Part shown: positions 3,927 through 64,000 of the stretch, piece by piece | How the letters are laid out: each line of letters begins with the position of its first letter | Position numbering within the stretch: position 1 is the first letter of the stretch | Assembly (NCBI GenBank): GCA_965285935.1 | Contig: CBDIWN010000008.1 | Location: forward strand, 310,001 to 374,000 | DNA length: 64,000 nucleotides | Direction of reading: 5' to 3' | Source of the DNA: Ophelia neglecta | Taxonomy: Eukaryota | Program-made: the position numbers and the translations under genes | The notes under the pieces: model-generated | The model's input: only the letters and a program-made list of their open reading frames with translations | What the model was told of the DNA's origin: nothing | Databases searched by the model: none

Positions 3927-4949
3927 TTACCTCTTGGCGCTCTCTTGCCGGTCTATATTCTCATAATCATCGTTTGTATTTAGTTGTTCGTACATTGGAT
4001 TTCCCTCCTCAGTCAGATTAGCTGTAAAACATAATAAAACATTCCTAAATCCACACTTCATACTTTCATAAACAAAGACAGTTACAGGAAACACATTTTC
4101 AACTGAATATCTAATAATAACGCCCATATTGCAATATTAAGAACCGCCAAGGATATTTATACTTTAGGGAGAACTAAGACACACGTTTAGCCCATATTTC
4201 AAATCACCTATAAGACTATACGAAAGCGTTGTTTAATGTGATAACAGGACATTTGTCGTACACATGTAATTCACAGGTTGTCAACACAATTATATTATGG
4301 TATAAGGGTATTAACTAAGTCTTGTATTTCCTCAATATGTCACATGATAAGAACATGATGTGTGTTAAATATGTGCTTATTTTGTTTAACAACGATTAAC
4401 AGTAGATCGAAGAAGCAGAAAAACCAGATTATTATACCAAAGCTAATATGTGTTTTTAGCTCTCACCATAGCCGGCATGTTCCGAGGACGGTTTCTCATA
4501 CACGTTGCAGTCAGACAATTCAACTTCCTGTGTGGAAGGAACCTGGTTTGCATTTTGGTGCGATAATTCGTTCGTTAAACGTACCCTGTATATAAGAAAA
4601 CACATGACCTGAGAATGCATAAGGAGTATTAGAGCAAATATTTGCACCCAACACTACAGTCAGTCACTACATAGCTATCTATCATATCTAATATATCTAC
4701 TACACTGGACGTAGAGACATTTGGACTAATGTACACAAAAGTTTCGAATATTGTTTTAAATACAAAAGAATTTGCCAAATTGCTTTAAGGAAAATAACAA
4801 GAAAACTTTCATTTTGGACGTCACTTACTTGATTATAAAACAACCAATGACGGTGGCAACAGTGGCAATTATTGCAACAATTGCTATGACGATTCCTGCC
4901 AATGCGCCCGGTGAGAGAGACGTATTTTGCCTTGGTTTATGGAGAGTAG
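3927..4949 (-). CDS. Gene A TM exon and two cytoplasmic exons carrying VYEKP, NPMYEQL and YENI motifs
   Basis: Exons 4949-4829 (phase 1-2), 4585-4467 (phase 2-1) and 4021-3927 have canonical splice sites and join in frame. They overlap ORF-track entries 4456..4647 and 3927..4127. Confidence 0.75.
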
Positions 4950-6851
4950 CTACATTTGAAATTATATCACGTCATATAATGATCCGGTAACATTGCTTCA
5001 AATCTCCCCGGACATGTAGTTGACACATATGTCCCTGTTTTATAATGTAATCTTCCTATTGACCAAATACTTGCATACTGTATACATACTAGCGGCAAAT
5101 GTGAATGCCCTTAATATATCTATTGGTAAGCTGATATAAAATACAAGCGCCGGGCTATCTGCTATAATATACCCTACATGGTACTCTACAAAGGGATTTT
5201 TACATCATTAAAGATATTCTACTGTAGGCCCATTATTGTCCGATTACATATTTTCAAAGCATTGATTGAACTATATTCAAGATCAAAAGAAATAATATCA
5301 TTATCTAAAGACAATGTAACGTATAGTCTACATTGGCAATAAGGGTATTACTGACGTTTCGTCGACATTGCCAGCAAAGATAATAGTTTAACAATGCAAT
5401 TAAATTCAATAACCTTGATTTTGTGCAGCCAAAGTAGTAGCGAAGATAGTCGTGTTTTTGAGACAGTCTTCTTTTATTCCATTCAATTGCCGATAAATCT
5501 TTAAGATGATCCGGTATGTAGAATTGACCGCCAGATTTGTCAATGTTTTGTTATACTTCATAGCAATATTATCTTTTCTGATTTCTATTGTAATCGATTC
5601 AATGTCTGCCCCATTTGCCTCTGAAACGGTGATTTTGTAGCCAAATACAGCGGATGTATTTAATGGAATAGATTTAACGTGTGTCCATTCAATGGTTGAT
5701 CTGTCAGTTTGAACATCGGTAATGCTGACTTTGTTTATGTCCGGATACTCGATGTACGCTGTTTAAATATAAAAACAATAAGATAATTTTTTTTATAATT
5801 ATATAAACATTATTGTGATTACTTTATTCGTCATGAAATATTAATCCTAATAATGTCCCACTACACTAAAACTGATTTTACTTACCTATAGATTGGTTAC
5901 ACAGATCTCCAGCATACCATGTATCGTACGGTGGTAGCTGACAACCGTTACTACATGCGCCACTGTACTGATGACAAGTCATTATGTTATCTACAGCCGC
6001 ACAGTAACTACTACATGGCTGATGTACAGCCCGAGCTGCACACTTTTTCACAAAATGCTCCCAACCTGGTCCCCAGACAGCCCTTAGAGCATGTTCCGTT
6101 GTTCCTCGCACAAACCGATGTCCCATTAACACCATTACAGTGTGTACTGCAGGTTTTGTCACATGTCTTTGAGTAGTAACCGTTTCGATAACCTATAGTA
6201 CAATCTCCTGTTTCTCTGTGACAAACGTTGGGCCCAGTGACTACTTTACAACCATTACTACATTTGTTCTGACACTGGTCTCCAAAGTAAGGGTCCTGAC
6301 AGCCACTCGTGCAACGCCCATCAGTGACGGAACATGACCGAGCATTAGGCTCCTGATCAGTAAGGCAATTCGCACTACATTGCTTGTTACAGTTGATGCC
6401 GAAATGGTCCATATCACATTCTGTAACGTAGATTAAAGTCAATAAGTGAAGGTTTGTTACGGCTTACCTTGAAACTGGATATAACTACTCAGACATTGTG
6501 TATTATATAATCTCCAGTGAAGAGTAACCCGATTTGTTTAGTCTTAGACAGTAATTGGCCTACCTTGGCACTCTGGGTACTTAGGGTAGTTCTTGGGGCA
6601 TTTATTGCAGCCAATAACGGGATCGCAAGACTGACATCGGGTTGTATCACACACTAGAATAACATGTGAATAGTTAACAATAAGAGTGTTGTATTGGGGA
6701 TTATCTTTGTAAACAACTTTTATAAATGGTTCAGATGAGAGTTTGCCTTTGTTTAATATAATCTATTATCTGACTATTGTTATAATAAGTCACGGCATTT
6801 CATTCTGGAACATACATTCAAGGATGACAATGAGTGCGGGTTTTAACATAC

Positions 6852-8144
6852 CAATAGGTCTGTATCCGTGAACTATCACCTCACACAGGGCAAGGTACTG
6901 GACTTGATACCCGCCTGCATTTCTGATAATGGTGACGTATCTGCCGCTTAGAGGCGAGTCACAATATATTGTGTCGCTTGCGTTTCCGGGTACGATTCCT
7001 GTATAATTCTTACAGAGACTTGTTGAATCATAGTATGCTTCGGAACCAACACCAAGGCGAAAATTACCGGTACGCCCTGTGAAAAGATATTCCTGGATAC
7101 AAATACATTGTCGCCAATGACACAATGTCCTCAGAGCGACTCTTACAGTAACCTTGATTCATGCAATGTACAGACGAATATAGAGGTGACAAATAAGTAA
7201 TTTAGTAATCAAAATATGGGTTTTTCATGAGGCCAAAGTTTCCATTATCACAAGTATGTGTAGACATATTTGTAAATAGCTCATCATTGAATATTACGCT
7301 GGTATTTCGTACAACCAATTAGAACTTTCGATCGAACAATTTTCTTAGCGATGTTTACACGAGTGGGTGACTTTTTATGTCATTTCTAAATAGAATCAAT
7401 TCAAATTAATTAATTGAAAATTTAATAACATAAATGCTGTTATTCCGGTTTATTAATAGGAAATACCTCTTTAGCTTTCCACCACATATTCACATCGTGC
7501 GTTAAGTGCGCTTTATAAGAACCGTAGCCAACAATTTAAAATCAAAAGAATCGGCCTCGCTATGGTTTCCCGCAACTGTTTTTGTATTTAATGTGTATCC
7601 CGTACGACTATTCATATGACTAGTTTGCATTTGCTTTCGATCTGTTTATTAGATGAGAACTCGAACCCAAATGACGTCTATTGTGTTTTAATCCTAAAAT
7701 ATATTAGATATTTAAGTAGCACTACTAGCACTGGTAGTCTATTGGTCAACAGTATACACATGAAATACAATTTGGAGTTTAATTTTTTCCCCATGTGAGC
7801 AGCGTGAGAGAGCAGAAAACAATCGCGTATCAGTACTGACGTGATTAATGCTACCATTATGCGTAGATGTTCCAGGTAGAGGTTTAACATTTGTGTCTAG
7901 ATCATCCAGTCGTTTTTTATTTACTTACGGTAAGATGGAGAATGCTCTCTGTTTAAGATGGTGACACTAACAACTGTGTAGATACCCTCTAGATCGACGA
8001 ACCACCAGGCTCTGAGCCCAGATCCAGCATCAGGAACTGCACAATAAATTGACCATGTAGATATTTTACCATCGACGGCCAGATCAGCGGCTGAATTACC
8101 ATATTGCCCACTTTGAAATGCCGGTCTTCCCTTCGCTATATTAC
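6852..8144 (-). CDS. Gene A F-type lectin (fucolectin/F5-8 type C-like) domain, two exons
   Basis: [11 protein letters not shown]...AADLAVDG...CAVP...AWWFVDL...VTILNR...GRYVTI...[10 protein letters not shown] matches the F-type lectin pattern N-x-A-x-G-K/R...Q-S...A-V-D-G...W-W-x-V-D-L...N-R...G-R-Y-V...L-C-E-V. Confidence 0.85.
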
Positions 8145-10039
8145 CTGTTTATACAAAATACTGATAAAACAGACTGTTCATGAATCCTTTTCTATAACGC
8201 TGTCATGAATCACAATATTACATATGTAGTATAAACTTTATCTTTACTCTAGCACACTCATGATAATAGTAACCCTTTTATGTCTTAATGCATCATATTA
8301 AGGTAATGGTAAAAACTTGTATGTATTATTGTGGCTATTGATTAGTCGCGGTAGGGCTATACTTAGAGGCAATGCGGAGGCCTAGACCTTGGGTATTTCT
8401 GAGTGACATAAACCAGAAAATAATCGGCAAGGCAAGGGTTATATCTGAGGGTAAATTTTACGGTTAGGGAAAAGGTTAGAGACAGGCTTAATAGGTCAAG
8501 CGCCCTGTTTTAATCTGGGAATTTACCTCCGCAAGGCTCCGCGCCTCCGCTTTTAATCAAAAGCCATTATTGTTTCATATAAAGTCTGCAACAGTTCATT
8601 ACATGAATGAGAGGACAAATGCATCACTTGAATTAAGAACAACAAAAGCAAAGGAAGTAACTTGACGGCTGAGACAAACAATAACTAAGGATGTTTTACA
8701 AGTACATATTTCTTAGATGTCATTCTTATGGTCATTCCGCCATTATTACACGAAGGACCTCAGAAGAACTTGCAACCGCTAAAATTCTTGGACCTCTGAT
8801 TCAAACAGACATATTTGAGAATGAGCGAATAGGACAAATAGGAGTATAGTTTAGTATATAAAACTTTACATTAAACCCGATAAAAACGATCATCATAATT
8901 ATTTTTGAAACAAAACAAGGCCTTAAAAAGCATCATATTGAACTCGATGCCTATTATAAAAACTTTTCTATTGTAGGGCATAAGTATGTATTCGCATTGC
9001 AGGCCAGTGTGACCGGGGAGGTGGAGGCATTATTTGATAGGCTAGGATTAAGAAAAAGTGCAGGGTGCATAAAAACATTGTTTGGGGCATGTAAATCCTA
9101 CATAAATAAAATCCTGAGCCTTAGCTAGACACAGCGATAGTGTGCTTCTGGAGTCTGCTTCTTCAACAAATGTTGTGCAAAATGACGTAATGGTTACATA
9201 AATATTCTTTAGTACTCAGTATAAATTTTTTTTTAAATACTCTATGCTGACAGTTTTAAATGCTTCCAAATGAATTTTAACAGAAAGTTTTACCAAGGTT
9301 ACACCCAGGCCCTTCTCTCCGTATGATGGCAGGATCATCCCATTCACATTCGCCTCCATCGATACAATCTCCTGTCATCTGATCACAACCCTTGGTACAG
9401 TGACAGGGAAATACACAGTCAGCAGTATTCCCAAACCTACACAGACCTGAGGGGAAAAATCAAGTGGAACATTTATTTGTTGGAATGTTAGACGAAACCA
9501 TGGAACTAACTGGTATTCCCGAACATGCTTGTTCAGGCAGCTCGATTTCTCTTATCGGCAATAGTTCGATCGCAAATGTCCGGAAAAAGAGCAGTACTAA
9601 TTTACAACGAGGATAGTGCTACGCCAAACCCTTCAAGCGTTATCTGCAAATCATAAACATTTTGTCTAGAAGTATACATCAACGAGTAAATCAAATTCAC
9701 ATCAGTGATATATTTTGACACGACAGTGTTATAGCGTTTCCAATGCCATATGGGTGGAACGAGAGTCCCTTTGTTCGCTGAAAGTAACCGAAAGCACCAT
9801 CTTCTTGCAATTCCGTGTAAAGTCGGGTATTCTATTTTTATTAACACCTTTACACTGTTAGTTATTAGTGTAGCTATTCTACCAAGGGGCCTAAAATTTC
9901 ATGAATCTTTTCAAATAAGCCACTTAAAATCATATAAAAAAACTATGATGCAATCGGTACAATTAATTCCACAACCTTGCGCTATTTCCCGGCCTCAGAT
10001 ATATTCTTCTTGTCGGTCTTACCTACCTTCCTCCGTCTG

Positions 10040-11654: not shown

Positions 11655-11870
11655 TGGGGGATCTAGAGATTACCAGGGGTCTCTGGCGGGTCTAGATGCA
11701 GGCAGAGCCCGAGAGGTTTTCAGAGCCCCTTTGGAGGATCTAGAGGTAGTAGGTGCCATCTGGCGGATTGATAGGTCATTAGAGTTCCCTGACGGATCTA
11801 GAGGTTATCAGAGTCCCTGGCGGCAGCCTAGATCTTCCGAAACCCCTTGCGGAGTCATAGGGAGCCACAA
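11655..11870. repeat. Degenerate ~30-bp tandem repeat (ccctggcggatctagaggtt core) in intron 1; copies at 46270-46490 and 48525-48745
   Basis: Recurring gatctagag and ctggcgg motifs. The block is present in each intron-1 copy that spans this position. Confidence 0.55.
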
Positions 11871-13514: not shown

Positions 13515-13569
13515 TTTGCTACTGTGCAAGAATGTATTCCCGGGGCAAACGCAGTGTAAACGCAGCTAG

Positions 13570-31412: not shown

Positions 31413-33548
31413 CTACTTAAAGTTTCCATACTGCTCGTTCCTTGTAATATACTCCATTGCAATACAATGTAAGAAACGATATTGATCCTGTTAAGAAATG
31501 GATACATTCACTTTAACTGTAACTTTATCTTTGAATACATGCATAAGATAACTGATTAATAAATAGCCCACTATCTTTGCACATTAACATTGATGAAAAT
31601 AGCCCGACATTTTGAAATTTTAGATTAGTTTGTCAATTGCAGAAAAGCATTGTTTGTCACAATTCCGAAAACTCTTAACGTCAATGCACATATTAGTTAT
31701 AGTACTTACCAAATTGTTGACAAATTGTTGTCTGTGGAGGGAAACAACTCTGACAGCAAGAAAGACGTCGACCTCGCGGTCTTCTTTCATCTTCTCTAGC
31801 ATATAATGTGCTGCGCATATCATTCCACTGTGGCTGGCACCGTCTCTGTAATATCCGAGTAAGTAATGGCATGTTGATTAAGCACGCGAGATGCTTTAAG
31901 GAGATCAATACTTACCTCAATCTCCTTAAGCCATATGGAAAAACAAGGCGATGGCAGGTGAGATGAAAGTTTAGAGGGACATATGAAAGCGCTATCAGCT
32001 GATTAATTAAATAGCCCCCCCCCCCACCAGCAACCCCTAATTAAGCGTCAGTGTCTCACTAATAACGAACAAGCATAGTGGTATATATGCTAAAAAGTGT
32101 GGATCATCCTTCAATAATTCATATTTTGTATGACACTTAGATTTTACAAATTACAGCTGCCTATTTATAAATGGGTGTTTGGCAACAAACCCCTCATTGG
32201 CGCTTTTTTTTAATCCTAAAGAGAAACACTTGTCTAGAGACTATCATAAGGATGATCCTAGTTTATTCATGTATTATTTGTGTTGTTCTGTGTTTATACG
32301 AAAACAGTTGACGTGTTTATAACTTACTTGCATTGGATAACAATTTTTCCAGCTTCAGATTGTCGTTGCCACTTCTGAAGGCGTTCTAACAGATTTAAAG
32401 TGTCATCCATGTTTGGCAGATTCTGTTTATCTGGCCGTTGCTTGAACAAAATATGGCGGACGCTCAATGCCTTGTTCTGGAATTAAGAATTTAACCAATA
32501 GTATTAAGATATCGTTGTTGTATTTGAGAATATGCTTTTCTATACTTCTAATAGTTGCCATATCAACATAAATTAAATAAAATCCACTAACACTTGAGGA
32601 AAAAGACACGGTGAACTTTCTTTCTTCTATGGCATCTTTCTCGTCTTCGTCTTTTGAATCGATGCGCACTTCAAGATCACCAAACTTCCTAACGTCACCT
32701 TGTTGAAAATCCCAGTAATTGGGACAATCCTGATGATAGAAATTGATGATAAAACAAGTTTGTATATTTTGACGGATTTAAATGTGATTACCTAACTTCT
32801 GGCATTTCGTATTGCACTGTTTGTTTTATTGGAGCACGGCCGCCTACCTCGGAGTTAGGGGACGTGGTGTCCACAGTTATCACAGTGTGGCAGTTTTGTT
32901 CATACACCAAACGCCAGAGGTCAACAACAGTATCAGGGAGTGGCAGCTGTGTTGCAATGAATGTCTTCTCCGCAAGAAAACTCTAATAAATCGTGGAGTA
33001 AACGAAATGCATTCCATCAGTATGTGGCTTTAAGTTCAAGAAAATTCGAAAAATACAAAAGAAAGAAAAAAATGTTATCAATTGAGCATCATCCAATAAA
33101 TCACTATTAAAAGAACATGATTAACGGAAAATATGTCTAGAAATATACCATGCGTTAATAATCATTCAGCAAAGTATAAGGGAGATTGATGATATGGTGA
33201 AAAAGCTGAATGTAAGTTGTATTCATTTAAACCAATACACACGTTGACCACAACGGCATTGATATAGTCATTGGTCCCCGGACATCTTGTAGATAGATAC
33301 AACCTGTGTTTATTGTCTATTGAAGAAAACAAAAGAAAACAGTTGTTTGAGTTAACCAATCTGATTGTGCATTGGTTCCATATACAGACATATAAGATTA
33401 GTTATATTATCATAACCCATGCAGTGTCTATTATCTTAAACTATGTACCTGGCACTATATCAGCATCTCGATTCTTCCGCCTGTTTTCCTTACTCAGAGC
33501 ACTAAGTTTGTCATCTGACTCCTTGTGTTGTTTCATTTTGGAAAGAAT
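31413..33548 (-). CDS. Gene B PTP D2 domain (predicted catalytically impaired) and C-terminal YGNFK
   Basis: P-loop QCKDGASHSG lacks the CX5R arginine. The WPD loop is RPD and KNRY is KNRD. Confidence 0.85.
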
Positions 33549-36500
33549 CTGAAATGTAAGTCATGCCATAATTATCATCGCCTCACAGTGATACAAAAGG
33601 GCTACTTTTCAGATAGGCGGAGTATATGGAAGCAAAAACCAAACAAACTGTTCACAGTGATCGAAAATGGCTAATGCCAAACTGACTTCATTATCGATTC
33701 CCTCTGTTAGCAAGGTAACGTAAATGGTGAGCATGCCGTTTGTTGCTGTCATCATAGAAAGTGCCATATTGTTATAATTATAGTGTTTGCCATCCATTAT
33801 AAACCACATGCGATTTTAACACTTTTGTTTAACATATCACACATTATCATATTGGTTAATGAGTGTTTACATGAAAAAGATGCATGTCTTTATATAATTA
33901 ATACAAGATTACATCATTGGAATACATAGTTTTTCACAACAAATATTAATAAACTAAAATAGTATCTATAAATTATTAATTGCTGAAATGGTGCAACAAA
34001 ACCACTATGTATAAAATGCTTACTTTGAATTGTTCTTCGATGGGTATTTCGTTGGAATATTCGTTTCCGCCGACCAGTTGCGTGAACCTCTCAGGATACA
34101 CGATACATGGAATGGCCGTCTGTCCTTGCTGGTATGCATCTAACAGTGCCTCGTAGATAAATATATATTGTGGCTGAAAGCAGAAGAAATATAACTTAAT
34201 ATATCTATTGTGTAGGAGTCAGTAATAATTAGATATGTAGACCAAATTGATAATTATGAAAATTGAGTATCCTAATACAAGAGCCATCGTATGGAGATTT
34301 AAAATATTACTATTTGCCTTTCCTCCTAAATATATATCAAAAGTAATGTTGAAATGTCACGAATGCACATAATTAAGTAGGCGTTTAGGATAAGGCGTTG
34401 ATAATCAAAGTTTAGTCGGCATATGGGTTTACAAACTCCACATCGATTTTCTATAATCTTTGACCTTAGCTGAACAAGATAATCTTTTTGGTAAAAACAG
34501 TGTTCATGTAAAAGCTTAATATAGCCTTAATGGAGTATTATCTCAGGAAAAATTCTTACCAATGTCTGAACCATTTCCATACGTTCATTTCTGAGCTGAG
34601 TTACCAGTTTGAAGACATCTACTTTTCCTTCTCTTTTCATTTGGTCCAGGAGATAGTCCAGCGCAATCAATGTCCCTGTGCGGCCTATTCCAGCACTGGG
34701 AGGGATAAAGGAAATATGCTCATTGTGACATTATTGTGCCTTGATAAATAAACTAGCCTAAGAACATTGTAAGCTTCAAATATGTTATTTTACCTGCAAT
34801 GCACAATAATTGGCCCTGTTCCCTCTCCGTCAAATGATCTCAGCTTTCGTCTGAATTGCAAAAGAGGGAATGCATGTTCTGGGGCCTCCTTGTCTGGCCA
34901 GGAGAGGAACTGCAGGTGCTTTACTGTCCTCTGTTCATTCTACAATATGCAAAAATGGGGTTTTCTTACTTTAAAGTCTAATTGTGTTGATCGTCCTCAA
35001 ACGCTGACATGCTCTCGTTAAGTGGCGCCGCAAAACGAAAGCTTTAAGGAATCGGAACATTTTAAGTTTTTGTTTTGAATTTTTCCATCCAAGAAAAAAT
35101 AATTGCACCATATCTGATTTTGCATTACTTTATTACATAACTTGGCATAGACCAGGTTATATCAAGTAATTGATGTTATAACAATTAAAAATCTGTGATC
35201 ATGTTCTATAAATACAGAATTCGACCAGTATTTAGTGTGTTTATTGTCTCTCAACTGTCGGTCAGCTATGAATTATATTTTACATGCCAGTTACCAGATT
35301 ACATGTGTTGCACAACCAGAAAGCAGTTATTCTCAGTACAGGCATTTTGTTTCCAGATATTTAACACAGTAAATCGAAAACAGCTCCTCCCGCAAGAGTT
35401 GAATAGTACGTCAAATGTGTAACAAATATTCTGCGTGTCGATGAAGTATTTGTGACACAAGCCTGCCCTAGTTATCAGGTATATTTAGGAAATAAATATC
35501 GATTTGCTATACACTATGTTGATGAAATTTTAGATGAAGAATTTGACAGTTGCTTGACGTTGCGAAAGCTGTCATAACCAAGTGACTTTAATGTGCTGGC
35601 AACCTGCTAGAATAGGCAGTTAAACAACAACAACAAATCACATCGTTATGGTATGAACTATGTGACATGTGGTAATCTAGATGTATAAAAGTAGAAACGA
35701 AAATAAGAAAAATGCGAGTGGAAAGCCGGCAGACAAAGCCAAGTCACTAGTCGAGAACAGTCCATTAAATCGTTCCGAAGTCATCAGGAACCAGTAGCCA
35801 AGGCGAGGCAGCAACAATTAAAACTAAGAAACGCACAAACACACCTCCGGACATATATAATAAGCAAAATATGCTTTAAACGACCTTCACTCATTTCTGT
35901 CTGATACTGGTTAAAAGTATTATATGTACCAACATGCAGTTCACAATATGATATAACTAAGAGGAAATGTTGTTCACGTGTTTCTTAACGTGTTTCGTTA
36001 CCTTCTGCGATTTCTCGTAGTTATTAATCTTCTAAGCAATACGGGCCATTCCACAATGTATAGAAGAATGAATAATTTCCTTTCACTTAGGGCCAAATTA
36101 ATCATATGAAATTTAAAATAACTGTAAAGAAAATCATACCCCTTTTTGTATGGTGATGAGTGTCAGAGTGTAGTCGGCATATGAATCACAGGCCGTGGTA
36201 GTCACTGTTATATCATCATAGGTTACGACCTCACCGACTGCCTCGGGCCAATACTGGGCACACTTTGTCTGTTTTAAATAAAACGAATGCCAATTGCAAA
36301 TGCTTAAATAGACACGCTCTAATGCCATTTAATACGTCACAAAAAAAAAAACAAAAAAACAATACAATTCAACAATACATTTTATTTTGTTCACACTGAC
36401 AAACCTTGGTGAGTTCTTTAATTCGTGTTGCCATAACAATACGATTTGACTCTAACTGCCAGACCATCGACCACAACGCGTACACTGTGTGCGGCTTCGG

Positions 36501-39500
36501 TCCTGAAAAGAAACATTTAGAAAAAGTTAATAATCGTTTGCTAGATGATAGATTTCTTTCTCTTAACCTTACTTAGTTGCTGTTTAGATTTTTTAAAGAC
36601 ATCATCATTATAAGTACCTATAGTATTGTTTCTGTTTCAATATTCGAATAATTTCTGATTTAATTTTAAGCCGACCTATAACTTCGTGAAACCGTAATCG
36701 TTTTTGTGACATATAATCTATGTCCGAATACCTATATGCGTTTGTGCGAGTTTTGATCACTCACCTTGTGTGGCCACGTAATGGTTTTTCTTATTAGGAT
36801 AACCCTAAAAAAAGATACGTCACTTCGACTGTGCTTTAGATTATAAATGACTTTACGGTTTGAGATATATCAAAAACCGGTAACATGTGGGTATATATAC
36901 CGATCTTCAGTAAAACCATTTCAATATAGTAATCACATTTACCGTTATGAAGCTGGCATTGATGTAGTCAGAGTTATCAATAGTAGTTTCCAGAACCACT
37001 CGAGAAAAGTCGTCTATAAAAATGTAACTCATCATGTAACATATGAATAAAATACTGTAAATTAATATCTTTTAGCAAACTGGAAACTTTCGCAAATTTA
37101 TATATAATCGCGGAAATATCAACTAGCAAAAATTTCCTGTGTGCTATTCCCTTACGCAACCCTTCTTTTAAGCAGTAATCAGGCTCTATCGTCGCTCAGC
37201 CAGGTCGGTAATGCAGGGTGAAATATGACTCGGGGAATTTTCTGGTTCCCTTAGACACCTTGTTTCTCAGTATACTTTGGCTGTCATTGAGTACATTTTA
37301 CCATTTTACGTTCTCAGACGTGTGTTTTTAAATATGAAGGTTATAATCAAAGAAAACATACAGGCTCTGATATTCTTAAATCGATCCCTAGCTATGTTTT
37401 GTGTCTGCTTGGCCACGTCACATGGGCTCAGTTCTCCGTAAGGGACGTCCTTCAACAACAGATAAAGTAATTAATGGAAAAAGCGTGAAAAGAAAAATTA
37501 AAACAGGACAAACAACTGGGACGAGTCTGTAAAATAAATGAGAGAACACAAATCATATATCAAAGCTTCGGTGCAAAATTAGGTAGCTGGAAAGAACCAA
37601 TGTGTTTTTAATTCAGACCATCCAACTTTAAGATATCACAATCGGCGATCGTCTTAAAATGAAGGGAAGGAATATTGGTACATTATTTTATTTTAGTTTC
37701 AAATACGGCGCAGTAATTAATAAAGATCTATTTTCGTGGCTAATCTTGTTTTCTTTACAGCCCCCAACATATAAAGCATAAATGACCATTTATTGAAACC
37801 CGCAGTGTATATACAATGAACGTTTTCGGTATACCGTGTATGCATGAACCATTTTTACTTCATTACGCATGTGTGACCCAATTAGTCAATGCCACAACAG
37901 TGGTAGGTCTAAAAATTGCAGCGGGATAAGACACCAAGGTTGCTTACACGGTGGATCAACCGATGTCATGAACTGTTTGAAGTTTAATTACAACATAAAG
38001 AAAGTAATAGATACATAAATTCCAAAGGATAAACATAAAGGACGCCTACTTTACTCAATGTCTTAATTGGAATTAAAGGAAGCATTACTCGTAACTTATT
38101 GTACCATCATGATCAATGCGACCGGCTTTATTATAGATATTTAATGTAGTTGTTATAGAGTTTTGAAATTACGAAAATGTGAACTAATGTAGATAGCTTT
38201 GTCAGTTAACTCATTTTATTAGAAAATCTTCATAAAACACAACTTAAATCGGCATGCATGACATAACCAAAATGACAAATATGACATTTTAAGTCGACCT
38301 ACGTAAGAGCCAGATTTAGGGTGACGTGCTAGGCGGGCACAATTTAACTTGAAAATGTTCTTTTGTAACGCGGTTATAAAATATCAGGTTGGCGATACGA
38401 ATGTTTGACACTTCCCGGGTTTATGCACGCATGCCCTCACAAAGTACCCCAGCATGCAGCGCTGTCTTCCGCTTTACGCCAGATGCCACAAATATCTATT
38501 ATCGCTCGAGCATACGCGATAGTGGTAATCATGGACATTTTGGAGAATGTTATATATCTAATCTAAGGAACTAGTCCAGAAGGCTTTATTCAATACCACA
38601 CACTTTACTTAACAGTGTCATCAAATTAGTTGTGCTGCCAAAGGCCTTTTTGTATTCTAGAAATGCAGATACCTTCAATTCAAAAAAAGAAGAAAAAACT
38701 TTTCACTGGCTGGTTACTCACTTCAAATTCCTTTTTCAGACCATCCTTAGTGTATTTCCGTGCCCCAATATATACTTCAAGATCATCTTCTTTGACGCAA
38801 GTTCCTTCGTCAAGACGTTTTTTAGCCGGGAAGTCATAGTATATCGTATTAGGGTTCTCATCTACGTTACCTCCAAAGCATGGATTGTCTACTTCCTTCA
38901 CAACTTGCGTTTCAGCCAGGTCTGTAACAGGTCCTTTGGAATGGTAAAAAATAGACTGATTGTATATTGTCCATAGTAACTGACATGCTTTCTCAAAATG
39001 ACACTATACAGCGAAGCGAATATTTAAATAGGTTTGATTACATGTGAAAAACGGGAGTAGGTACCCGGCACACAAAACAATATCATTTATCAAGAAAAGT
39101 CCATCAATTTGGTCCGGTACAATCAGGAATCGAAAGACATAGGCCTGGAATTACTTACCGGAAGGCCTTCTAAATGACGAATAGCTTCTTCCATGTGGAG
39201 GTATTTCCTCCATTTTAGCATTAGCATCATCTTTCGCTTTCGTGCGTCGTTTCCTATTATGAATTTTCAAACACACCGCTCGTAAGGATTTTTATAACTC
39301 ATTAATAATAACGAAGCACTCTCAATGCTGATGCTTACTAAAAGCATAATGGGATATAATTCCTCTGAGAAACAACGTACGGGTTGATAATTTCTTAATT
39401 CACCAACCTGAGAAAAACGACAAGAATTACCACCAGGATGGCTATAGTCAGGAACGCTGCCACTGATCCGGTAACAGGACCGATCAGGCCTAACGAGGCA

Positions 39501-42500
39501 GGGGGTCCGACGCTAGGCTCTGGAAGATTGTACAATTGAAATGGACATTGGTTAAGCAGCTGCAATGATGTTGTTTGCGTCTGAAGCACAATAAATAGAT
39601 AGTATAGAGCATCGGCATATAAAGGCTATGTCAACTTTTTTTTTTACGGCCCACGAATTCACCGGCTACAAGTTAAAAAAAAGTTGCTGTAGTAAATACT
39701 ACTTGTGACCATAAGAAATATGAAATTATATGTGACAAGGCAATATTATCGACATTGTTGGTAAGGGTATTGTCGACATTTTTTCGATATTGGCAACAAT
39801 ATACTTTGATACTGAATTTAAATTCAAAACCTTGTTCCTGTGTGGCTAAAGTAGTAGCGAAGACAGTCATGTTTTTGAGACAGTCTTCTTTTATTCCAGT
39901 CAATTGCCGATAAATCTTTAATATGATTCGGTATGTAGAATTGACCGCCAGATTTGTCAATGTTTTGTCATATTTCATAGCAATATTATCTTCTTTGATT
40001 TCTATTGTGAGCGATTCAATGTCTGCCCCATTTGCCTCTGAAACGGTGATTTTGTAGCCAAATACGGCCGATGTATTTAATGGAATAGCTTTCACGTGTG
40101 TCCATTCAATGGTTACTCTGTCACTTTGAACATCGGTGATGCTGATTTTGTTCGCATCAGGATACTCAACATAGGCTGTTCATATAAAAAAAAGCAATAA
40201 GATCATTAATTTTTCATTGATACATAAACATAATTGTGATTACTTTCATAAGAGAAAAATTTATCAAAATTATGTCTCAGTGCAATAAAACTGATTTTAC
40301 TAACCTATAGATTGGTTACAATGATCTCCAGCATACCATGTATTGTACGGTTCAAGCTGACAACCGTAACTACATGCTCCACTGTACCGATGACAAGTCG
40401 TTGTGTCATCTACAGCCTCACAGTAAATACTACATGGTTTATCACATGTTATGCCATAATAACCACTCTGACAAACGCACGCCCCGCTATACCTGTCACA
40501 TCCGGGGTAACTATGCTCACCAAGACACTGATTATTACAGGTTTTATTGCAGTATTCTCCATAAGAACCGTCGTTACACCCATGATTACAAATCCCACTC
40601 CACTTGTTGCAAGAGACCAATTGGTTGAGTGGCGTACAGCCCGAGCTGCACCTTGTTTCACAAAATGCTCCCCACCTGGCCCCCAGACAACCCTTAGAGC
40701 ATGTTCCGTTGTTCCTCGCACAAACAGAGGTCCCATTAACACCTTGACAGTATTCACTGCAGGTTTCGTTACATGTGTTTAAGTAGTATCCATTTCGACA
40801 GCCATTATTACAATCTCCTGTTTCTCTGTGACAAACGTTAGAAGCAGAGACTACATAACAACCATTGCTACAATTGTACTGACACTGGTCTCCAAAGTAA
40901 GGGTCCTGACAGCCACTCGTGCAACGTCCATCAGTGACAGAACAAGACCGAGCATTAGACTTCTGATCAGTAAGGCAGTTCGCACTACATTGCTCGTTAC
41001 AATTGATGCCGAAATGGTCTATATCACATTCTGTAACGTAGATTAAAGTTAATAAGTGAAGGTTTGTTACGGCTCACCTTAAAACTGGATGTTACTGCTA
41101 GGGCATTGTGTAATATGTTACAGTGAATAGTGACACGATTCGTTAAATCTTAGACAGTTATGAGCCTACCTTGGCAGTCCGGGTACTTTGGGTAGTTCTC
41201 GGGGCATTTACTGCAGCCAATAGCGGGATCGCACGACTGACATCGGGTTGTATCACACACTAGAATGGATAGTTAGCAAAAATAAAATAGTGCTGTATTG
41301 GGCCTTATCCTTTAACACAACTTTCATAAATCCCAATTAATCGCTTTGACTCATAATTGTCTTCCTGTGCAAGCCTAAGATCGAAGTGATTACAGTGGAT
41401 TGGCGTCAAGTTCAGGAGTGAGTTTGCATTTGTTGAGCACCATCTATTATCTGATTATTGAAATTAGTCACGGCATTAGTTTCAACGGTGTCAAATGCGA
41501 GTGGGTCCATTTGAAAATGTTTAGCTTATGCAGCCACTATCTATTCCTAATAACCACTATCTCATTCCGGAACACACATTCAAAGATGAAAATAAGTGCC
41601 GGTTTTCACATACCAATAGGTTTGTATCCGTGAACTATCACCTCACACAGGCCAAGGTAATGCACTTCATCCCAGCCTGCATTTCTAATAATGGTAACGT
41701 ATCTGCCGCTGAGGGGTGAGTCACAATATATTGTGTCGTTTCCTGCTTTGGGAACGACTCCTGTATAATTCTTACAGAGACTTGTTAAATCACCGTCTGT
41801 CTTGGAACCAACTCCAAGGCGAAAATTACCGGTACGCTCTGTGAAAAGGTATACCTGGTTACAAATACATTATCTCCAATGACAAAATGTCATCAGAGCG
41901 ACACTTACAGTAACCTTGAATCGTGTATTGTACAGACGAATATGGGGGTGACTAATAACTAATTTAGAAATCAACAAATGGTGTTTTGCTTAAGGCCTAT
42001 GTGTACATTATCTAAACTTTGTGTTAACATGTTTTTAAGTAGCTCATCATGGAATATATCGCTGGTATTTTGTAAAACTAAATAGAGATTTCTATCCAGA
42101 CTATTTTGTTAGCGAGGTTTACACGAGTGGATAACGTATTTATAAAATACCTAAAAGAATCAATTCTAATAAAATAGTTGAAGATTTAATAACATAAATA
42201 GTGTGTTGCAGGAAATACCTCTTTACTTTTTCACCACGGATTCACCTTGTATGTTAAGTGTGCTTTACCAGTACCGTAGCTAACAATCAAGGAAACAAAA
42301 TATTCTGTTATGCGATGGTTGCCTCGCAACAGATTTTGTTTCAAATTTGTATCCTGTTCTCAAGGGAAATATTCACAGCCCTAGTTTGCATTTGCCTTCG
42401 ACACCTGTATTAAATGGGAACTCCAGCCCATTTGACATCAATTTCTTTTTATGCTAAAATATATCAGATTTGTAGGTAGCAATACTAATACTGGTGGTCT

Positions 42501-45500
42501 ATCAAAAGCATACACATGAAGTACAATTTGGAATTTATATTTTGCCCATGAGAAGATAATGGGAGGGACGAAAACAATTATTAGTAATGATGCGGTTAAT
42601 GCTACAATCAGGCGTGGATGTTTCAGTTAAATGTTTTACATTTGTCTCTACCAGTCGTTTTTGATTTTCTTACTGTAAGATGGAGAATGCCTTCTGTTTA
42701 AGATGGTGACACTGACAACTGTGTAGATATCCTCTAGATCGACGTACCACCAGGATATGTTCCCAGATCCAGCATCAGGATGTGCACAATTATCTATCAA
42801 TGTAGAGATTTTACCATCGACGGCCAGATCAGCGGCAGAGTTATAAAATTGTCCACTTTGATATGCTGGCCTTCCTTTCGCTATATTACCTGTTTATACA
42901 AAATACTGATAAAATGTCTGGTTTATTATGCTGTATTTAATCATAGAATAACCTATTTAGTAAACCACAAGGGCGAACAGAACATTTACGGGTATATGAA
43001 AATGCTCTTTACCAGCAAATGAATAAAACGTTCCTCATAATCATAAGATAATGCAAAACAAGAAATTTAAAAGCATCATATTGGATGCGATGCATATTAT
43101 ACAAGCATTTCTCTGGTAGGGCATAAATATCTATTTGCATTTCAATCCGGGTCTGACACTTATAGAGAAGGGAAGAGGTTGAGGCATTATTGGTTCGGTT
43201 AGAGATCGGAAAAAGAGCAGGATGCATGCAAACATTGTTTGACAGGTGTAGACCCGTCCTCTTCCTGCACTATAGGTTTTTACAGTTCTATATACTATAT
43301 TATAGTAATATCACAGTCCTATTCATTGCCATAACAAACATATTTCCTACTTATACAGAGCAAATAGAACACATGCTATCAATATGCTTACTCGAGGGCC
43401 ATATTCTTTCAAAAATAGCCCCCATGTTACTTGCTGAACTACACAAAATTACTTCAATTTTCTCCAATGGCAATGGCATCATGATCACTATACCGGAATA
43501 TTTTGGCCGTATGGGCAAAAATTCTGATTTCGAAACGTGAGATTTTAGGAAGTTTGTAGCCATCCATTCCCTCTCATCTTGGTTACATAATTCTACGAAT
43601 AAGTAGTCATCATTCGTCCGTGTAATTATTAGGTCTAATATATGACCTTTATCATGTTTTGGACTCGTAACGGGTCGTTAACGGTCAAATGTTTTGATCA
43701 AATGCGAGAACCTTGTAACATTACTATTATCTAACCTATTAAGGTGAATATTAAAAGCTCCTAATGAGTATTTGATTTCCCAAGGACGAAGATATCTATA
43801 AATGTTTCAAATGATTGATGTAAAATGAGTGGAAATCTGGACAAAGTCATCATTCGTCCTTGATAGTATAAGGTCTCATATGTGACCTTTATCATGTTTT
43901 GGACTCGTAACGTTTTCTTAACGGTCAAATGTTTTGAGCAAATGCTAGAACCTTGTAACATCACTATTATCTAAACTATTAAGATGAATATTAAAAGCTT
44001 CCAATGAGTATTTGATTTCTCTAGGACCAAGATATCTATAAATGTTTCAAATGTTTGGTGTAAAACAAGTGGAAATCTTGATACATTCTTTATTGATGGA
44101 GGTGGTCTATAGACTATAATGATGCTAATCCTATATGAAATGGGCTTTATACTTAAATAAAGACATTCAAATCACATAAATTTATGCTCCAACTGCTGAA
44201 TAACGTGAAAAAAAATAATTTAAGGCGATAAACTTTTAAGCAATCAAAAAACTGTAAACAGTTCAAATATAACAGTTCAACATAGATATAACATAAAAAA
44301 GGGAAATGTGACAAATTAAGGTATAAAAATTTGCCAGGCTTAGATTCAATAATCAAATTAATTGTATTTGATCGTTAACAGTTCTCATACTGAAGGAAAC
44401 AATCGGAGACATGACCACCGAGGACTACCGGCGATCATTCTAAATTATTCGGAAAATGGTTCCATACTTTGTATAGTTGAATGATAGGGGACAGTTCTCA
44501 TAGATTACTCCCAAATTAATTTTTGTTTTAGGATTGGGGCTCTCTTAGGTTTTGATTGAATAAATAGGTGCCGTAAGTGCATTAAAAAATTCACATGTCC
44601 CCATGGCAATATTATTTATTCTTTTCAACATTGTCAAGGGCGTTCTGATATTTCATATTATACTAATTATATATTGCATAAAAAAATTGATTATGATTTG
44701 ACTTTTCATGAATACTGTACGTCATAGTATTAAAATGAGAATTATGGAGTGTTAATACCTACACAAATAAGAACCTGAAGGTTAGCCAGTCACAGCGATA
44801 CTGTGCCTCAGGTGTCTGCTTATTTTCAAAAAGTTGCGGGATATGACGTAATGGTTAAATTAAAATTGATAAGTATACAGTATAACATTTTTAATATCTC
44901 TATTTTGACAGTCTTAAAAGTATTAGAATAAATATAAGGGGAAAGTTTTACCGAGTTTACACCCAGGCCCTTCTCTCCGTATGATAGCAGGGTCATCCCA
45001 TTCACATTCACCTGAATTGATACAATCTCCTGTCGTCTGATCACAACCATTGGTACAGTAACAGGGAAATACACAGCCAGCAGTATTCCCAAACCTACAC
45101 AGACCTGAGGGAAAAATTTCAAGGGGAACATTTAAATGGTAGGACTTGGTGTTAAACAAAACATGAAACAAATTGGTATTCCTGAACATTTTATTTGGGC
45201 AACACGGCTTTCTCTGACCAGCAAAAGTTTGCTCCCAAAAGTCGGGCCGAAAAAGCAAAACGTACATAAAACCAGGAGTGTGGGGGACCAAACACATTGA
45301 ACGTAATCTTCGAAACATAAACCTTCTTGTGTAGAAGAATACATCTAAGATTTATAAACATTCATATCAGTAATATATTTTGACGCGACAGCTAACGTTA
45401 TGTGCGTTTGACGAGCGTCCTTTTGTTAGCTGAAATATCCGAGAGCACCAACTTTCTTGTTATTCCGTGGAAAGTCAGTATTTCAATTTTTATCAAATAT

Positions 45501-55849: not shown

Positions 55850-58800
55850 CTACTTAAAGTTTCCATACTGCTCGTTCCTTGTAATATACTCCATTGCAAT
55901 ACAATGTAAGAAACGATATTGATCCTGTTAAGAAATGAAAACATTCACTTTGACTTTAACTTTATCTTTGAATACGTGCATAAGATAACTGATTAATAAA
56001 TAGCCCACCTTCTTTGTACATTTACATTGATGAAAATAAACCGACATTTTAATATTGTAGATTAGTGTACTAATGATACAAAAGAAATGTCCGTCACATT
56101 TACGAAAACTCTTACCGTCAATGCACATATTAGTAATAGTACTTACCAAAGTGTTGACAAATTGTTGTCTGTGGAGGGAAACAACTCTGACAGCAAGAAA
56201 GACGTCCACCTCGCGGTCTTCTTTCATCTTCTCTAGCATATAATGTGCTGCGCATATCATTCCACTGTGGCTGGCACCGTCTCTGTAATATACAAGTAAG
56301 TAGTGGCATGTTAATTAAGCCCGCGAGGTGCTTTAAGGTGATCAATACTTACCTCTATCGATGAGAGGTGAGATGAAAGTTTAGAGGGACATATGAAAGC
56401 GCTAACAGCTGATCAATTAAACAGCCTCCCCCCCCCCCATCACCATCACCACCAACCCCTAATTAAGCGTCAGTGTCTCACTAATAACGAACAAGCATAG
56501 TGGTATATATGCTAAAAAGTGTGGAGCATCCTTCAATAATTCATATTTTGTATGTCACTTAGATTTTACAAATTACAGCTGCCTATTTATAAATGGGTGT
56601 TTGGCAACAAACCCCTCATTGGCGCTTTATTTCAATCCTAAAGAGAAACACTTGTCTTAAGAATAACATAAAGATGATCCTAGTTTATTCATTTGTTATT
56701 TGTCTTTTCCCGTTTTATTTTTACGAAAACAGTTGACGTGTTTATAACTTACTTGCATTGGATAACAATTTTTCCAGCTTCAGATTGTCGTTGCCACTTC
56801 TGAAGGCGTTCTAACAGATTTAAAGTGTCATCCATGTCTGGCAAATTCGGGTTATCTGGCCGCTGCTTGAACAAAATATGGCGGACGCTCACTGCCTTGT
56901 TCTGGAACTAAGAATTTAACCAATAGTATTAAAATATCGTTGTTGTATTTGAGAATATACTTTCCTATACATCTATAAGTTGACATATCAACATAAATAT
57001 AATAAAATCCAGAGACTAACACTTGATGAAAAAGACACTGTGAACTTTCTCTCTTCTATGGCATCTTTCTCGTCTTCGTCTTTTGAATCGATGCACACCT
57101 CAAGATCACCAAACTTCTTAACGTCACCTTGTTGAAATTCCCAGTAATTGGGACAATCCTGATGATAGAAATTGATTATCGAAACAAGTTTGCGTATTTT
57201 GACGGACTTAAATTTGATTACCTAATTTCTGGCATTTCGTATTGCACTATTTGTTTTATTTGAACACGGCCGCCTACCTCGGAGTTAGGGGACGTTGTGT
57301 CCACAGTTATCACAGTGTGGCAGTTTTGTTCATACACCAAACGCCAGAAGTCAACAACAGTAGCAGGGAGTGGCAGCTGTGTTGCAATGAATGTCTTCTC
57401 CGCAAGAAAACTCTAATAAATGGAGTAAACGAAATGCATTCCACCAATATGTGGCTTTTAGTTCAGGAAAATACGAGAAATACAAAAGAAAGAAAAAAAT
57501 GTTATCAATTGAGCATTATCCAATAAATCACTATTAAAAGAACATGATTAATGGAAAATACGACTAGAAATATACCATGCGTTAATAATCATTCAGCAAT
57601 GTAAAAAGAAGATTAATGGTATGGGGAAAAATTTTAATGTAGGTTGTATTCATTTAAACCAATACATACGTTGACCACAACGGCATTGATATAGTCATTG
57701 GTCCCCGGACATCTTGTAGATAGATACAACCTGTGTTTATTATCTATCGAAGAAAACAAAAGAAAACAGCCGTTGAATTAATAAATCTGATTGTGCATTG
57801 GTTCCATATACAAATATCTAAGATTAGTTATATTATCATAACCCATGCAGTATCTATTATCTGAAACTATGTACCTGGCACTATATCAGCATCTCGATTC
57901 TTCCGCCTGTTTTCCTTACTCAGAGCACTAAGTTTGTCGTCTGACACCTTATGTTGTTTCATTTTGGAAAGAATCTGAAATATAAGTAAGTCATGCCATT
58001 ATTATTATCGACTCATAATGCTACAAAAGAGGAACTTATCAGATAGGCGGAATATATGGAAGCATAAACCAAACAAACTGTTCACAGTGATTCAAAATGG
58101 CTAATGCTACACTGACTTCATAATCGATACCCTCTGTTAGCAAGGTAACATAAATTGTGAGCATGCCGTTCGTTACTGTCATCATATAAGTGTCATATTG
58201 TTATAAATATAGTGTTTCTTATCGTTTCTATAAACCACATGCGATTTGAACACTTTTGTTTAGTATATGTGTGTGCATTAAAAGAAGCATGTGTTAATAT
58301 AATTGATACAAAATTACATCATTGGAATAAATTGTTTTACACAACAAATATTAATAAACTGAAATAGTTCCCATAAATTATTAATTGCTGAAATTGTGCA
58401 GCAAAACCACTATGTATAAAATGCTAACTTTAAATTGTTCTTCGATGGGTATTTCGTTGGAATATTCGTTTCCGCCGACCAGTTGTGTGTACCTCTCAGG
58501 ATACACGTTACATGGAATGGCCGTCTGTCCTTGCTGGTATGCATCTAGCAGTGCCTCGTAGATAAATATATATTGTGGCTAAAAGCAGAAGAAATATAAC
58601 TTAATATATCTATTGTGTAGGAGTCAGTGATAATAAGATAGGTAGACCAAATTGATAATGAATTATGAAATTGAATATCCTAATAAAAGAGTCCTCGCAT
58701 GGGGATTTATAATATTACTATTTTGCTTTCCTCCTAAATATATGTCAAAAGTAATGTTGAAATGTCACGAATGCACATAATTAATCAGGCGTTTAGGATA

Positions 58801-61800
58801 AGGCATGGCTAATCAACGTTTACTCGGCATATGGGTTTACAAACTCCACATCCGACTTTCCATAATCATTTGACTTTAGCTGAACACGATAATCTTTCTG
58901 GTAACAACAGTGTTCCTTTAAAAGCTTGCCATATCCTCAAAGTAGTATTATCTCAGCAGGAAGTCTTACCAATGTTTGAACCATGTCCATACGTTCATTT
59001 CTGAGCTGAGTTACCAGTTTAAAGACATCTACTTTTCCTTCTCTTTTCATTTGGTCCAGGAGATAGTCCAGCGCAATCAATGTCCCTGTACGGCCTATTC
59101 CAGCACTGGGAGGGATAAAGGAAGTATGCTCATGGTGACATTATTGTGCCTTGATAAATAAACTCGCAAAATAATGCCTTAGAACATTGTAAGCTTCAAA
59201 CATTTTATCTTACCTGCAGTGGACTATAATTGGCCCTGTTCCTTCTCCGTCAAATGATCTCAGTTTTCGCCTGAGTGCCAAAAGAGGAAATGCGTGGTCT
59301 GGGGCCTGCTTGTCTGGCCAGGAAAGGAACTGCAAGTGCTTTACTGTCCTTTGTTCATTCTACAATATGCAAAAAATAGGGTTTTCTTACTTTAAATTCT
59401 AATTGTGTTGATCAACCTCAAACGGTGACATGCTCTCGTTAAGTGGCGCTAAAAAACGAAAGCTTTCAGAAATCGGAACATATTAAGTTTTTGTTCTGAA
59501 TTTTTCCATCCAAGAAAAATTCAAGCAAAAATAATTGCAAGAGATCTGATTTTGCAATACTATATTACATAATTTAGCATAGACCAGGCTATGATAACGT
59601 GCATTCGATATAAATTCTGTCAAATGAACATCCACATAGTAATCATTTTACAAATGGAAGAAACCGCAGCTTGTTTCAACACTACCGACTGTGTCCGACT
59701 CTGACATAATACTCTCCACAACATTTTAAATATATGTATCAAAATAATGGCATAACAAATACTAATCTCTTCCGTCTTTGTCAGCGGTAACCGTTTGCAT
59801 CAAACCGTACAGGGTTATCAATATAGTGTCACTATTTTTGTTCTCGCGTGACAGAGCAATTCGTTTCCGTCACCATTAAAAAAAGTGTAATTCCGCTCGT
59901 ATCAGGATATAAAAAATCACATGCACACGATTTCCATCTCTTGCCTCATACTGGCATTTGACTGTTTGAGGGTCAAAAATACTGCAAGATTCACGCAGAA
60001 TAAATTTGTGCAAATCTTTGTCCAGTAATTGAAGTTTTTACAATTGGCAATCTGTGATCATGTTCTATAAATACAGAATTCGACCAGAAAAAAAACAGGT
60101 CATGATTTATCGACCACATTGGGTAATATAACATGATAAGATGTGTTGCACAAGCAGAAAGCAGTTATTCTCAGTACAGGCATTTCGTTTCCAGATATTT
60201 AACACAGTAAATCAAAAACGCAAACAGCATCTACCACAAGAGTAGAATGGTAGGTCATATGTGTAACAAAGAATCTGCGTGTCGATGACACAAGTCACCA
60301 AAGCCTGCCTAAGTTATCAGGTATATTTAGGAGATAAATATCGATTTGTTATACACTATAGTGATGAAGGTTTAGATGAAGAATTTGACAGTTGCTTTAC
60401 GTTGCGAAAGCTGTCATAACCAAGTGACTTTAATGTGCTGCCAACGTGCTAGAATAGGCGGTTCAACAACAAAATGCCTAGTATTGTTGTGAACTATGTG
60501 ACATGTGGTACTTTAGATGTATACAATTAGAAACGGAAATATGATAAATGCGAGTGGATATCCGGCAGGCAATGCCAAGTCCCTAGCCGAGAACAGTCCA
60601 TTAAATCGTTACGAAATCATCAGGAGCCAGTAGCCGACGTGAGGCAGCAACAATTTAAACTAAGTGACGAAGAATATTACTTCCGGACATATATAATAAG
60701 CAAAATATGCTTTACAAGACCTTCACTCATTTCTGTCTGATGTTGTTTAATAGTATAACGTGTACCAACATGCGGGTTCACAATATGGTATAACTAATAG
60801 GAAATGTTGGTCACGTGTATCTTAACTGTCGTTAAATTCTGCGATTTCTCGCAGTTATTTTTCTTCTAAGCAATACGGGCCATTCCACAATGCATAGAAG
60901 AATGAATATTTTCCTTTCACTTAGGGCCAAGTTAATCATATGAAATTTAAGATAACTGTAAAGAAAATCATACCCCTTTCTTTATGGTGATGAGTGTCAG
61001 AGTGTAGTCGGCATATGAATCACAGGCCGTGGTAGTCACTGTAATATCATCATAGGTTACGACCTCTCCAACTGCCTCGGGCCAATACTGGGCACACTTT
61101 GTCTGTTTTGAATAAAACTAATGTCAGTTGCCAATGCTTAAGTAAACACGGTCTAATGATATTAAATACGTCACAAAAATACAAAACAAAAATACAATTC
61201 AACAATACATTTTATTTTGTTCACACTGACAAACCTTGGTGAGCTCTTTAATTCGTGTTGCCATAACAATACGATTTGACTTTAACTGCCAGACCATCGA
61301 CCACAATGCGTTCACTGTGTGCGGCTTGGGTCCTGAAATAAAAAGAAAAGAATAATCTAACTTAGTTGCTATTTGGAATTTGAACGATATTATTATTAGT
61401 ACTAGTGGTATATTTTGATGAGTTTTTAGCTTTTAGAAAATGTTTCAAAGTAATAATAATTTCTAATTATAAACACACCTATATTTTCGTGAAATTGCAA
61501 TCGTGTTATGTGACATATATATGTCCGAATACTTATATGAGTTTGTTCGAGATTTGTTCACTCACCTTGTGTGGCCACGTAATGGTTTTTCTTATTAGGA
61601 TAACCCTAAAAAAGATACGTACCTTCGACTGTGCTTTAGTTTATAAATGACTTTACAGTTTGAGATATATACCAAACTTCAGTAAAACTGTTTCAATATA
61701 GTAATCGTGTTTACCGTTATGAAGCTGGCGTTGATGTAGTCAGAGTTATCAATAGTAGTTTCCAGAGCCACTCGAGAATAGTCGTCTATAAAAATGTAAC

Positions 61801-63745: not shown

Positions 63746-64000
63746 CTGAAGGATTGCACAATTACGTGAAATGGTGATTGGTTAAGCAGCTGTAATCATG
63801 TTGTTTGCATCTGAAGCACAATGCATAGGTAGTATAAACATCGGCATATAAAGGCAATGTCAACTGCTTTGCGGCACACGAATTCAACGGTTACAAGTTA
63901 ATAAAAACTTCAGTTGTTGTAGTAAATATTATTTGTGACGACAACAAATATGAAATTACATGTGAAAAGGCAATATTATCGACATTTTTTTTATATTGAC

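Follow-up and report, generated by a model that had tools for sequence, protein, structure and literature searches.

The question raised by this locus is whether a receptor gene (gene A) with the tail tyrosine motifs of the engulfment receptors CED-1, Draper and MEGF10 belongs with those receptors, to whose motif set the original prediction had likened its tail, or is a different kind of receptor. The window, that is, the whole 64,000-nt stretch of Ophelia neglecta DNA that was analysed, is intron-rich, has a GC content of 32-49%, and gives its best named protein matches to molluscan sequences. It houses three tandem minus-strand paralogs, namely gene C, of which the 3' part only is present, gene B and gene A (Table 1).

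Table 1. Coordinates of the predicted features of genes A, B and C, with the evidence for each
Feature	Position	Strand	Evidence and remarks
Gene A last coding exon (T2)	3927..4021	-	AG acceptor, in-frame translation; completes YANL; holds NPMY/YEQL, YENI and the stop codon
Gene A tail exon (T1)	4467..4585	-	AG/GT sites, in frame with TM exon and T2; YEKP and Tyr40 of the ITAM
Gene A transmembrane (TM) exon	4829..4949	-	21-residue mean hydropathy 3.02; unrelated to gene B TM exon
Gene A FN3 exon	5414..5758	-	Pfam fn3 E=3.7e-5, narrowly missing the curated cut-off; atlas fn3 look-alikes 0.95; self-blastn
Gene A large EGF-repeat exon, 535 nt	5886..6420	-	One Cys-to-Tyr change; 191-nt deletion near 6019 relative to gene B, followed by TAG at 6013 and 6010
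Gene A small Cys-rich (EGF-like) exon	6564..6653	-	Open, phase 1-1, dN/dS 0.30 against gene B
Gene A F-type-lectin-like domain, second exon	6852..7076	-	Open, in frame; no Pfam match when taken alone
Gene A F-type-lectin-like domain, first exon	7929..8144	-	Pfam F5_F8_type_C E=4.7e-5, below cut-off
Gene A first identified coding exon (Cys-rich)	9294..9446	-	Open
Gene B ectodomain exons	39831..45104	-	Open; exon-by-exon homology to gene A
Gene B TM and juxtamembrane segments with the two PTP domains	31620..39625 (approximate)	-	Pfam Y_phosphatase E=2.2e-14; tblastn; ORF list
Gene C, 3' part of second phosphatase paralog	55928..64000 (approximate)	-	84-89% identical to gene B

Judging from its sequence, the ectodomain of gene A is a recent duplicate of that of the neighbouring two-domain receptor phosphatase, gene B, fitted with an unrelated transmembrane segment and tail. 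The two ectodomains share 80-86% nucleotide identity (76% in the region of the first exon) with introns included, as measured by self-blastn, and this homology stops near position 5310, about 100 nt past the FN3 exon and within an intron. Past its own FN3 exon, gene B goes on to a TM exon unlike that of gene A, and then to two PTP domains. As the homology stops after FN3, and as the TM and tail of gene A are without a match elsewhere in the window in blastn and tblastn searches, gene A is a phosphatase-receptor ectodomain with another cytoplasmic end. Near-identical ectodomains thus carry opposite cytoplasmic modules, a tyrosine-bearing tail in one gene and tyrosine phosphatase domains in the other. 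In gene B the first PTP domain (D1) contains a WPD loop as well as [10 protein letters not shown], the latter split by an intron, the visible part of gene C likewise includes two PTP domains, and D1 of both genes looks catalytic. With regard to the EGF repeats, the exon of gene B that is homologous to the large EGF exon of gene A matches mollusc proteins named MEGF6/11, and falls with EGF_laminin/PEAR1L clusters at 0.90-0.92, at low recognition; Pfam returned no match for the EGF exon. A signal-peptide exon was sought upstream of gene A (9446) and of gene B (45104), and the candidates were repeat-derived or unconvincing; since gene B, which is otherwise open, shares this absence, it is not specific to gene A.

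The array as a whole bears the marks of duplication. Genes B and C lie in tandem duplicates (24633-39759 and 49304-63989) whose unit measures about 24.5 kb and whose long blocks are 84-89% identical, and the B-A and C-B spacers are homologous to each other. The intergenic spacers also contain five copies of a repeat of about 1.1 kb, all in the same orientation (1-937, 12235-13330, 24633-25646, 46968-47762 and 49181-50354); this repeat may promote unequal crossing-over within the array. Between genes A and B, the segment from about 13300 to 19600 is G-skewed (GC skew up to 0.37) and internally repeated, as in a satellite or a duplicated insertion. An intron of gene A contains a very high-copy short element (8491-8707), over which contig depths add up to more than 40,000 and many loose ends occur, and an intron of gene B contains an ORF on the minus strand (43351-43677) in a segment that is absent from gene A. 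This ORF appears to resemble a LINE endonuclease fragment.

The copy of gene A in the window is, as assembled, damaged. Its large EGF exon measures 535 nt vs 726 nt in gene B, a difference that corresponds to a single 191-nt deletion near 6019. As 191 is not a multiple of three, the frame is shifted, and it runs into stops at 6013 and 6010 before the exons for FN3, TM and tail are reached; the full gene A transcript is not open from ectodomain to tail, and the tail lies out of frame in it. Collapse of a repeat by the assembler is an unlikely cause, as the two breakpoint regions in gene B agree at no more than 15 of 60 nt. Outside the broken exon, the ectodomain of gene A has five exons, all open and with a dN/dS of 0.46 against gene B, which suggests that selection was at work for most of the time since the two genes diverged and that the break is recent; the intron mismatch between the two genes (0.15-0.20) is close to dS. 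This copy is likely to be non-functional at full length, and it is probably a recent pseudogene or a null allele.

The best-surviving alternative, though an unlikely one, is that gene A is functional after all as a shorter lectin-EGF-FN3-ITAM receptor, either because splicing omits the large EGF exon or uses cryptic sites in it, or because the deletion is an assembly error or represents one null allele. In the gene as assembled, the frame could be restored in no other way than by leaving that exon out or through weak cryptic splicing. The exon (6420-5886) is of phase 1-1, its omission opens the frame through to the natural stop, and the remaining exons and splice sites are intact. Moreover, weak in-frame cryptic donors exist (the best scoring 5.9 at 6192), along with one 103-nt internal intron candidate, and the broken exon has lost a Cys, while its 3' remnant has a dN/dS of 1.14, though on small counts (2.5 synonymous and 11.5 non-synonymous changes), as if that exon alone had been released from selection. 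Against this, the dN/dS of the whole broken exon is 0.54 (0.44 in its 5' part), near the value elsewhere, the breakpoints are without homology, and the broken exon keeps strong splice sites, with a donor score of 11.2, the highest of all sites scored, and an acceptor score of 8.3, on a matrix that was trained on these same sites. Inclusion of the exon would therefore be expected, and a transcript with such a premature stop would be expected to undergo nonsense-mediated decay.

Notwithstanding this recent break, the tail exons themselves are very probably real and selected. The predicted in-frame join of the TM exon with T1 and T2 gives a 71-residue tail with four tyrosines. The first belongs to YEKP (Y30, 4500-4498), and the second to YANL (Y40, 4470-4468), where the tyrosine ends T1 and the rest of the motif is supplied by T2 across the predicted splice junction. 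The third (Y51, 3992-3990) is common to NPMY and YEQL, such that the one residue closes an NPxY motif and opens a YxxL motif, and the fourth (Y60, 3965-3963) begins YENI. The shared tyrosine, the placing of YENI five residues past YEQL and that of YEKP upstream are thus as the original prediction had it. The prediction had also described an ITAM-like arrangement with a spacer one residue short of the canonical length; the five-residue spacer between YEQL and YENI is there, but a canonical ITAM that is only created across the junction had been missed. The ITAM consensus has been given as Yxx[I/L]x6-9Yxx[L/I] (bioRxiv 10.1101/2022.03.04.482883), and YANL-x7-YEQL in the predicted spliced tail fits it, so that the tail has canonical ITAM spacing.

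The likelihood of such motifs arising by chance was gauged with 200,000 shuffles of the 71-residue tail. NPxY occurred at a frequency of 0.022, NPxY overlapping YxxL/I at 0.002, a canonical ITAM at 0.0028, at least three YxxL/I motifs at 0.0011, and the motif set of the original prediction at 0.0004. These values are flattering, as the motifs were picked after inspection of the sequence, but the margin is wide nonetheless. The same motif combination was found in 1 of 1409 stop-free 31-mers from a six-frame translation of the window, and that one is presumably the tail itself. No ITIM or ITSM pattern was found in the tail. Taken at the level of sequence, it has the appearance of a tail under selection for phosphotyrosine signalling, and an ITAM is better supported than had been stated.

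A comparison with a second sample bears on the conservation of the tail. Three DNA runs, which come from a single sample of a single study and depart from the window at numerous sites, supplied contigs that were aligned over positions 3900-4620 (721 nt); the runs yielded 110, 105 and 78 contigs, with a third to a half of them below 90% identity (36 of 110 in run X1), and several tail copies therefore exist in that sample. Among the 40 of 164 tail differences listed, 13 are exonic, with five synonymous and eight non-synonymous, a synonymous share that compares with 20% expected. None of the 13 falls on Y30, Y40, L43, N48, P49, Y51, L54, Y60 or I63, an outcome that is not significant (chance p=0.26). 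With regard to indels, the 12 of 23 listed in the tail region include a single exonic one, of 12 nt and in frame, and the 12 of 45 listed across the whole of gene A are all intronic. The junction of the 191-nt deletion is not among the entries listed for this sample. Over 60-73% of contig depth, D stands in place of N62, giving YED for YEN in many copies, so that a YxN reading at Y60 is lost in those copies. The proposal that YEN serves as a Grb2 YxN motif also draws little from the shuffles, where two YxN motifs appeared at a non-significant frequency (p=0.074, 200,000 shuffles), and it is not upheld. Peaks of contig depth over the motif segments were set aside, since depth is not copy number and is inflated by overlapping contigs.

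More distant tail paralogs in the second sample are marked by contig loose ends at 3984, 4028, 4456, 4534 and 4579. Some contigs share T2 and then diverge in the intron, one class agrees with the window as far as NPMYEQ and departs from it thereafter, the next residue being Phe when read by hand, and one distant paralog has an in-frame insertion of four codons near the start of T1.

A further alternative is that the tail acts chiefly as an endocytic sorting signal, in which NPxY and YxxL/I motifs would engage clathrin adaptors in a scavenger-type receptor, with neither a kinase cascade nor a pairing with phosphatases. NPxY and three YxxL/I motifs are indeed present, the relatives of this receptor in Biomphalaria have been classed as scavenger class F-like (PMC13712769), and CED-6 binds NPXY with no need for phosphorylation (PMC9388098). 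This alternative is nevertheless improbable, given the canonical ITAM spacing (p=0.003) and the fact that the closest paralog is a phosphatase. The tail tyrosines have acidic residues beside them, which fits kinase substrates, and the NPxY lacks the upstream aromatic residue that characterizes LDL-receptor-type signals.

It is very improbable that the TM and tail exons are not spliced to the FN3 exon of gene A at all, because they belong to another gene or were mis-joined, or that the motifs are incidental. The homology between A and B does end in the intron before the TM exon, and the TM acceptor is modest (5.9, among the weaker in a range of 4.8-14.3 on the matrix trained on these same sites), but the phases match (1-1) across a 464-nt intron, the frame runs open through three exons, the interval holds no other ectodomain, the motifs exceed chance, and the related tail copies keep the frame.

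This leaves the question of membership with which we began. CED-1, Draper and MEGF10 resemble gene A in having an ectodomain of EGF repeats and a tail with NPxY plus an ITAM or YxxL, and NPxY with an ITAM is the combination described for Draper and MEGF10 (PMC8092387, PMC9388098). They differ in carrying an EMI domain, and in CED-1 the NPXY (962-965) and YXXL (1019-1022) are separate motifs, 54 residues apart (PMC8092387, PMC9388098). Gene A, by comparison, has a lectin domain and FN3, overlapping motifs in a tail of only 71 residues, multi-copy tandem paralogs, and phosphatase siblings. No match to the EMI domain was found in the identified exons of gene A, or in 87 upstream minus-strand ORFs of at least 42 aa in two intervals (9450-13600 and 19600-31600). 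Three weak Pfam matches among these 87 ORFs were all below cut-off and were treated as chance. As EMI was not found, the domain set differs, and the motifs of CED-1 are separate, gene A is placed outside this group. That it is a family engulfment receptor of the CED-1 type, as its EGF repeats (with their resemblance to MEGF/PEAR1-like clusters) and its NPxY and ITAM might invite one to think, is highly improbable for a frameshifted recent multi-copy duplicate of a receptor phosphatase with lectin and FN3 domains and overlapping motifs. The likeness of tail motifs noted in the original prediction stands, and it extends to the EGF repeats but no further; gene A duplicates a receptor tyrosine phosphatase, with a short tail instead, and is not a member of the CED-1/Draper/MEGF10 group. 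By analogy, receptors of the gene A type could still work like Draper or MEGF10.

The original prediction had suggested that such a receptor may be triggered by a glycan. The first lectin exon of gene A is similar to the F-type lectin FBP32 in the PDB (E=1.4e-6) and to chain 1k12 (E=4.2e-5), and gene A carries the h2DGx cation motif as AVDGK. F-type lectins, among them the eel agglutinin AAA and FBP32 (PDB 1k12 and 3cqo), are thus like gene A in sequence (E of 1e-6 to 4e-5), and they bind fucose through the motif HX24RXDX4(R/K) (PMC5712786), of which gene A is without the His and the Asp and gene B without the Asp only. In gene A the loop has no His and the stretch where Asp is expected reads R-E-H, the terminal Arg being kept; gene B keeps His, Arg and Lys. 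A glycan trigger is therefore possible in general terms, but fucose binding by the lectin of gene A is, on its sequence, doubtful. Between the lectin domains of A (7929-8144 and 6852-7076) and B (42674-42889 and 41614-41838) there are 31 differences in 146 residues, most of them grouped in short runs, and the dN/dS of these domains is 0.60-0.73 vs 0.29 in FN3.

The nearest parallel to this arrangement is found in snails. The LG5R 1B and 1C receptors of Biomphalaria are described as clustered single-pass receptors with fucolectin/galactose-binding and EGF domains, in which short-tail 1B receptors share a cluster with 1C receptors that have two PTP domains (PMC13712769). In architecture alone, gene A fits 1B and gene B fits 1C, with lectin, EGF and a single TM in both, and a short tail vs two PTP domains. 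The 1B tails are termed ‘without identifiable domain signatures’, and the main text of that paper has no occurrence of ITAM or NPxY (PMC13712769). Its section 20, where 1B and 1C are described, mentions no FN3, whereas genes A and B have FN3 (PMC13712769). No description of ITAM or NPxY tails in this lectin-EGF receptor family was found in the open-licence literature.

Homologs with such a tail were likewise not recovered from other species in three word-based protein searches and one full HMMER scan. A word-based search with the FN3 exon matched none of 196 candidates, and the full HMMER scan gave seven matches, the sole one with E<1e-10 being P0005, an unnamed 203-aa fragment that ends just past the TM. 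The lectin exon profile matched 2 of 171 candidates, both distant, and the gene B EGF exon 4 of 168. Two short-tailed mollusc EGF homologs were retrieved, and neither has NPxY or an ITAM.

Tails with ITAMs have been described in receptors of other architectures. The oyster CgIgR (PMC6994640) and Hydractinia Alr (bioRxiv 10.1101/2022.03.04.482883) receptors have ITAM tails, some of them with overlapping motifs, and the Alr genes, a family arranged in tandem, include numerous frameshifted pseudogenes and have activating as well as inhibitory members (bioRxiv 10.1101/2022.03.04.482883). CgIgR and Alr differ in being Ig-domain receptors whose inhibition proceeds through ITIMs that recruit SHP (PMC6994640; bioRxiv 10.1101/2022.03.04.482883). 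Unlike in those systems, the presumed inhibitory twin here, gene B and its kind, has phosphatase domains of its own. Near-identical ectodomains with opposite signalling ends are also described for paired receptors of vertebrates, Siglec-11/16 and PILR among them, which have no homology to A or B. In the vertebrate pairs the inhibitory member uses ITIMs and not a built-in PTP.

The reading that we prefer, at about an even chance, is that intact copies of the gene A type form the activating half of a paired ITAM/phosphatase family of lectin receptors, of which the copy in the window was recently broken. A ligand would cluster intact A-type receptors through the lectin/EGF ectodomain, whereupon a Src-family kinase would phosphorylate Y40 and Y51 (and Y60), and a tandem-SH2 kinase of the Syk/Shark type would dock on Y40/Y51, or possibly on Y51/Y60. 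A PTB adaptor would compete for Y51 in its unphosphorylated state; since Y51 belongs to both NPxY and ITAM, readers of the PTB and SH2 kinds would be in competition for it. Sibling phosphatase receptors of the gene B type, with their near-identical ectodomain, would join the same clusters and remove the signal. That ITAM-Syk signalling is opposed by sibling phosphatases in this manner is, in our estimation, evenly balanced, and that the outcome is engulfment specifically is a tentative and less probable suggestion. In the oyster, ITAM-Syk signalling has been linked to haemocyte phagocytosis (PMC6994640, PMC13344425).

A broader, and rather doubtful, proposal is that the lectin-EGF-FN3 arrays of lophotrochozoans constitute a paired-receptor immune system, in which one ectodomain would be swapped between an ITAM/NPxY tail and a built-in phosphatase, dispensing with an ITIM/SHP relay. 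In such a system the lectin loops would diversify, activating copies would be born and die rapidly, with gene A as a fresh casualty, and Y51 would toggle between Syk signalling and PTB-dependent uptake.

This returns us to what the locus may contribute. Being frameshifted, gene A is a poor experimental subject, and neither invertebrate ITAM receptors nor the 1B/1C architecture is new to the literature. What the window adds is a modest gain, namely a canonical ITAM made at a splice junction, the breakpoint of a tail swap, and evidence of turnover. Clusters of this architecture are located beneath a schistosome-resistance peak in snails (PMC13712769), and if such tails carry ITAMs that are opposed by phosphatase twins, this would give the clusters a model of signalling that can be put to the test.
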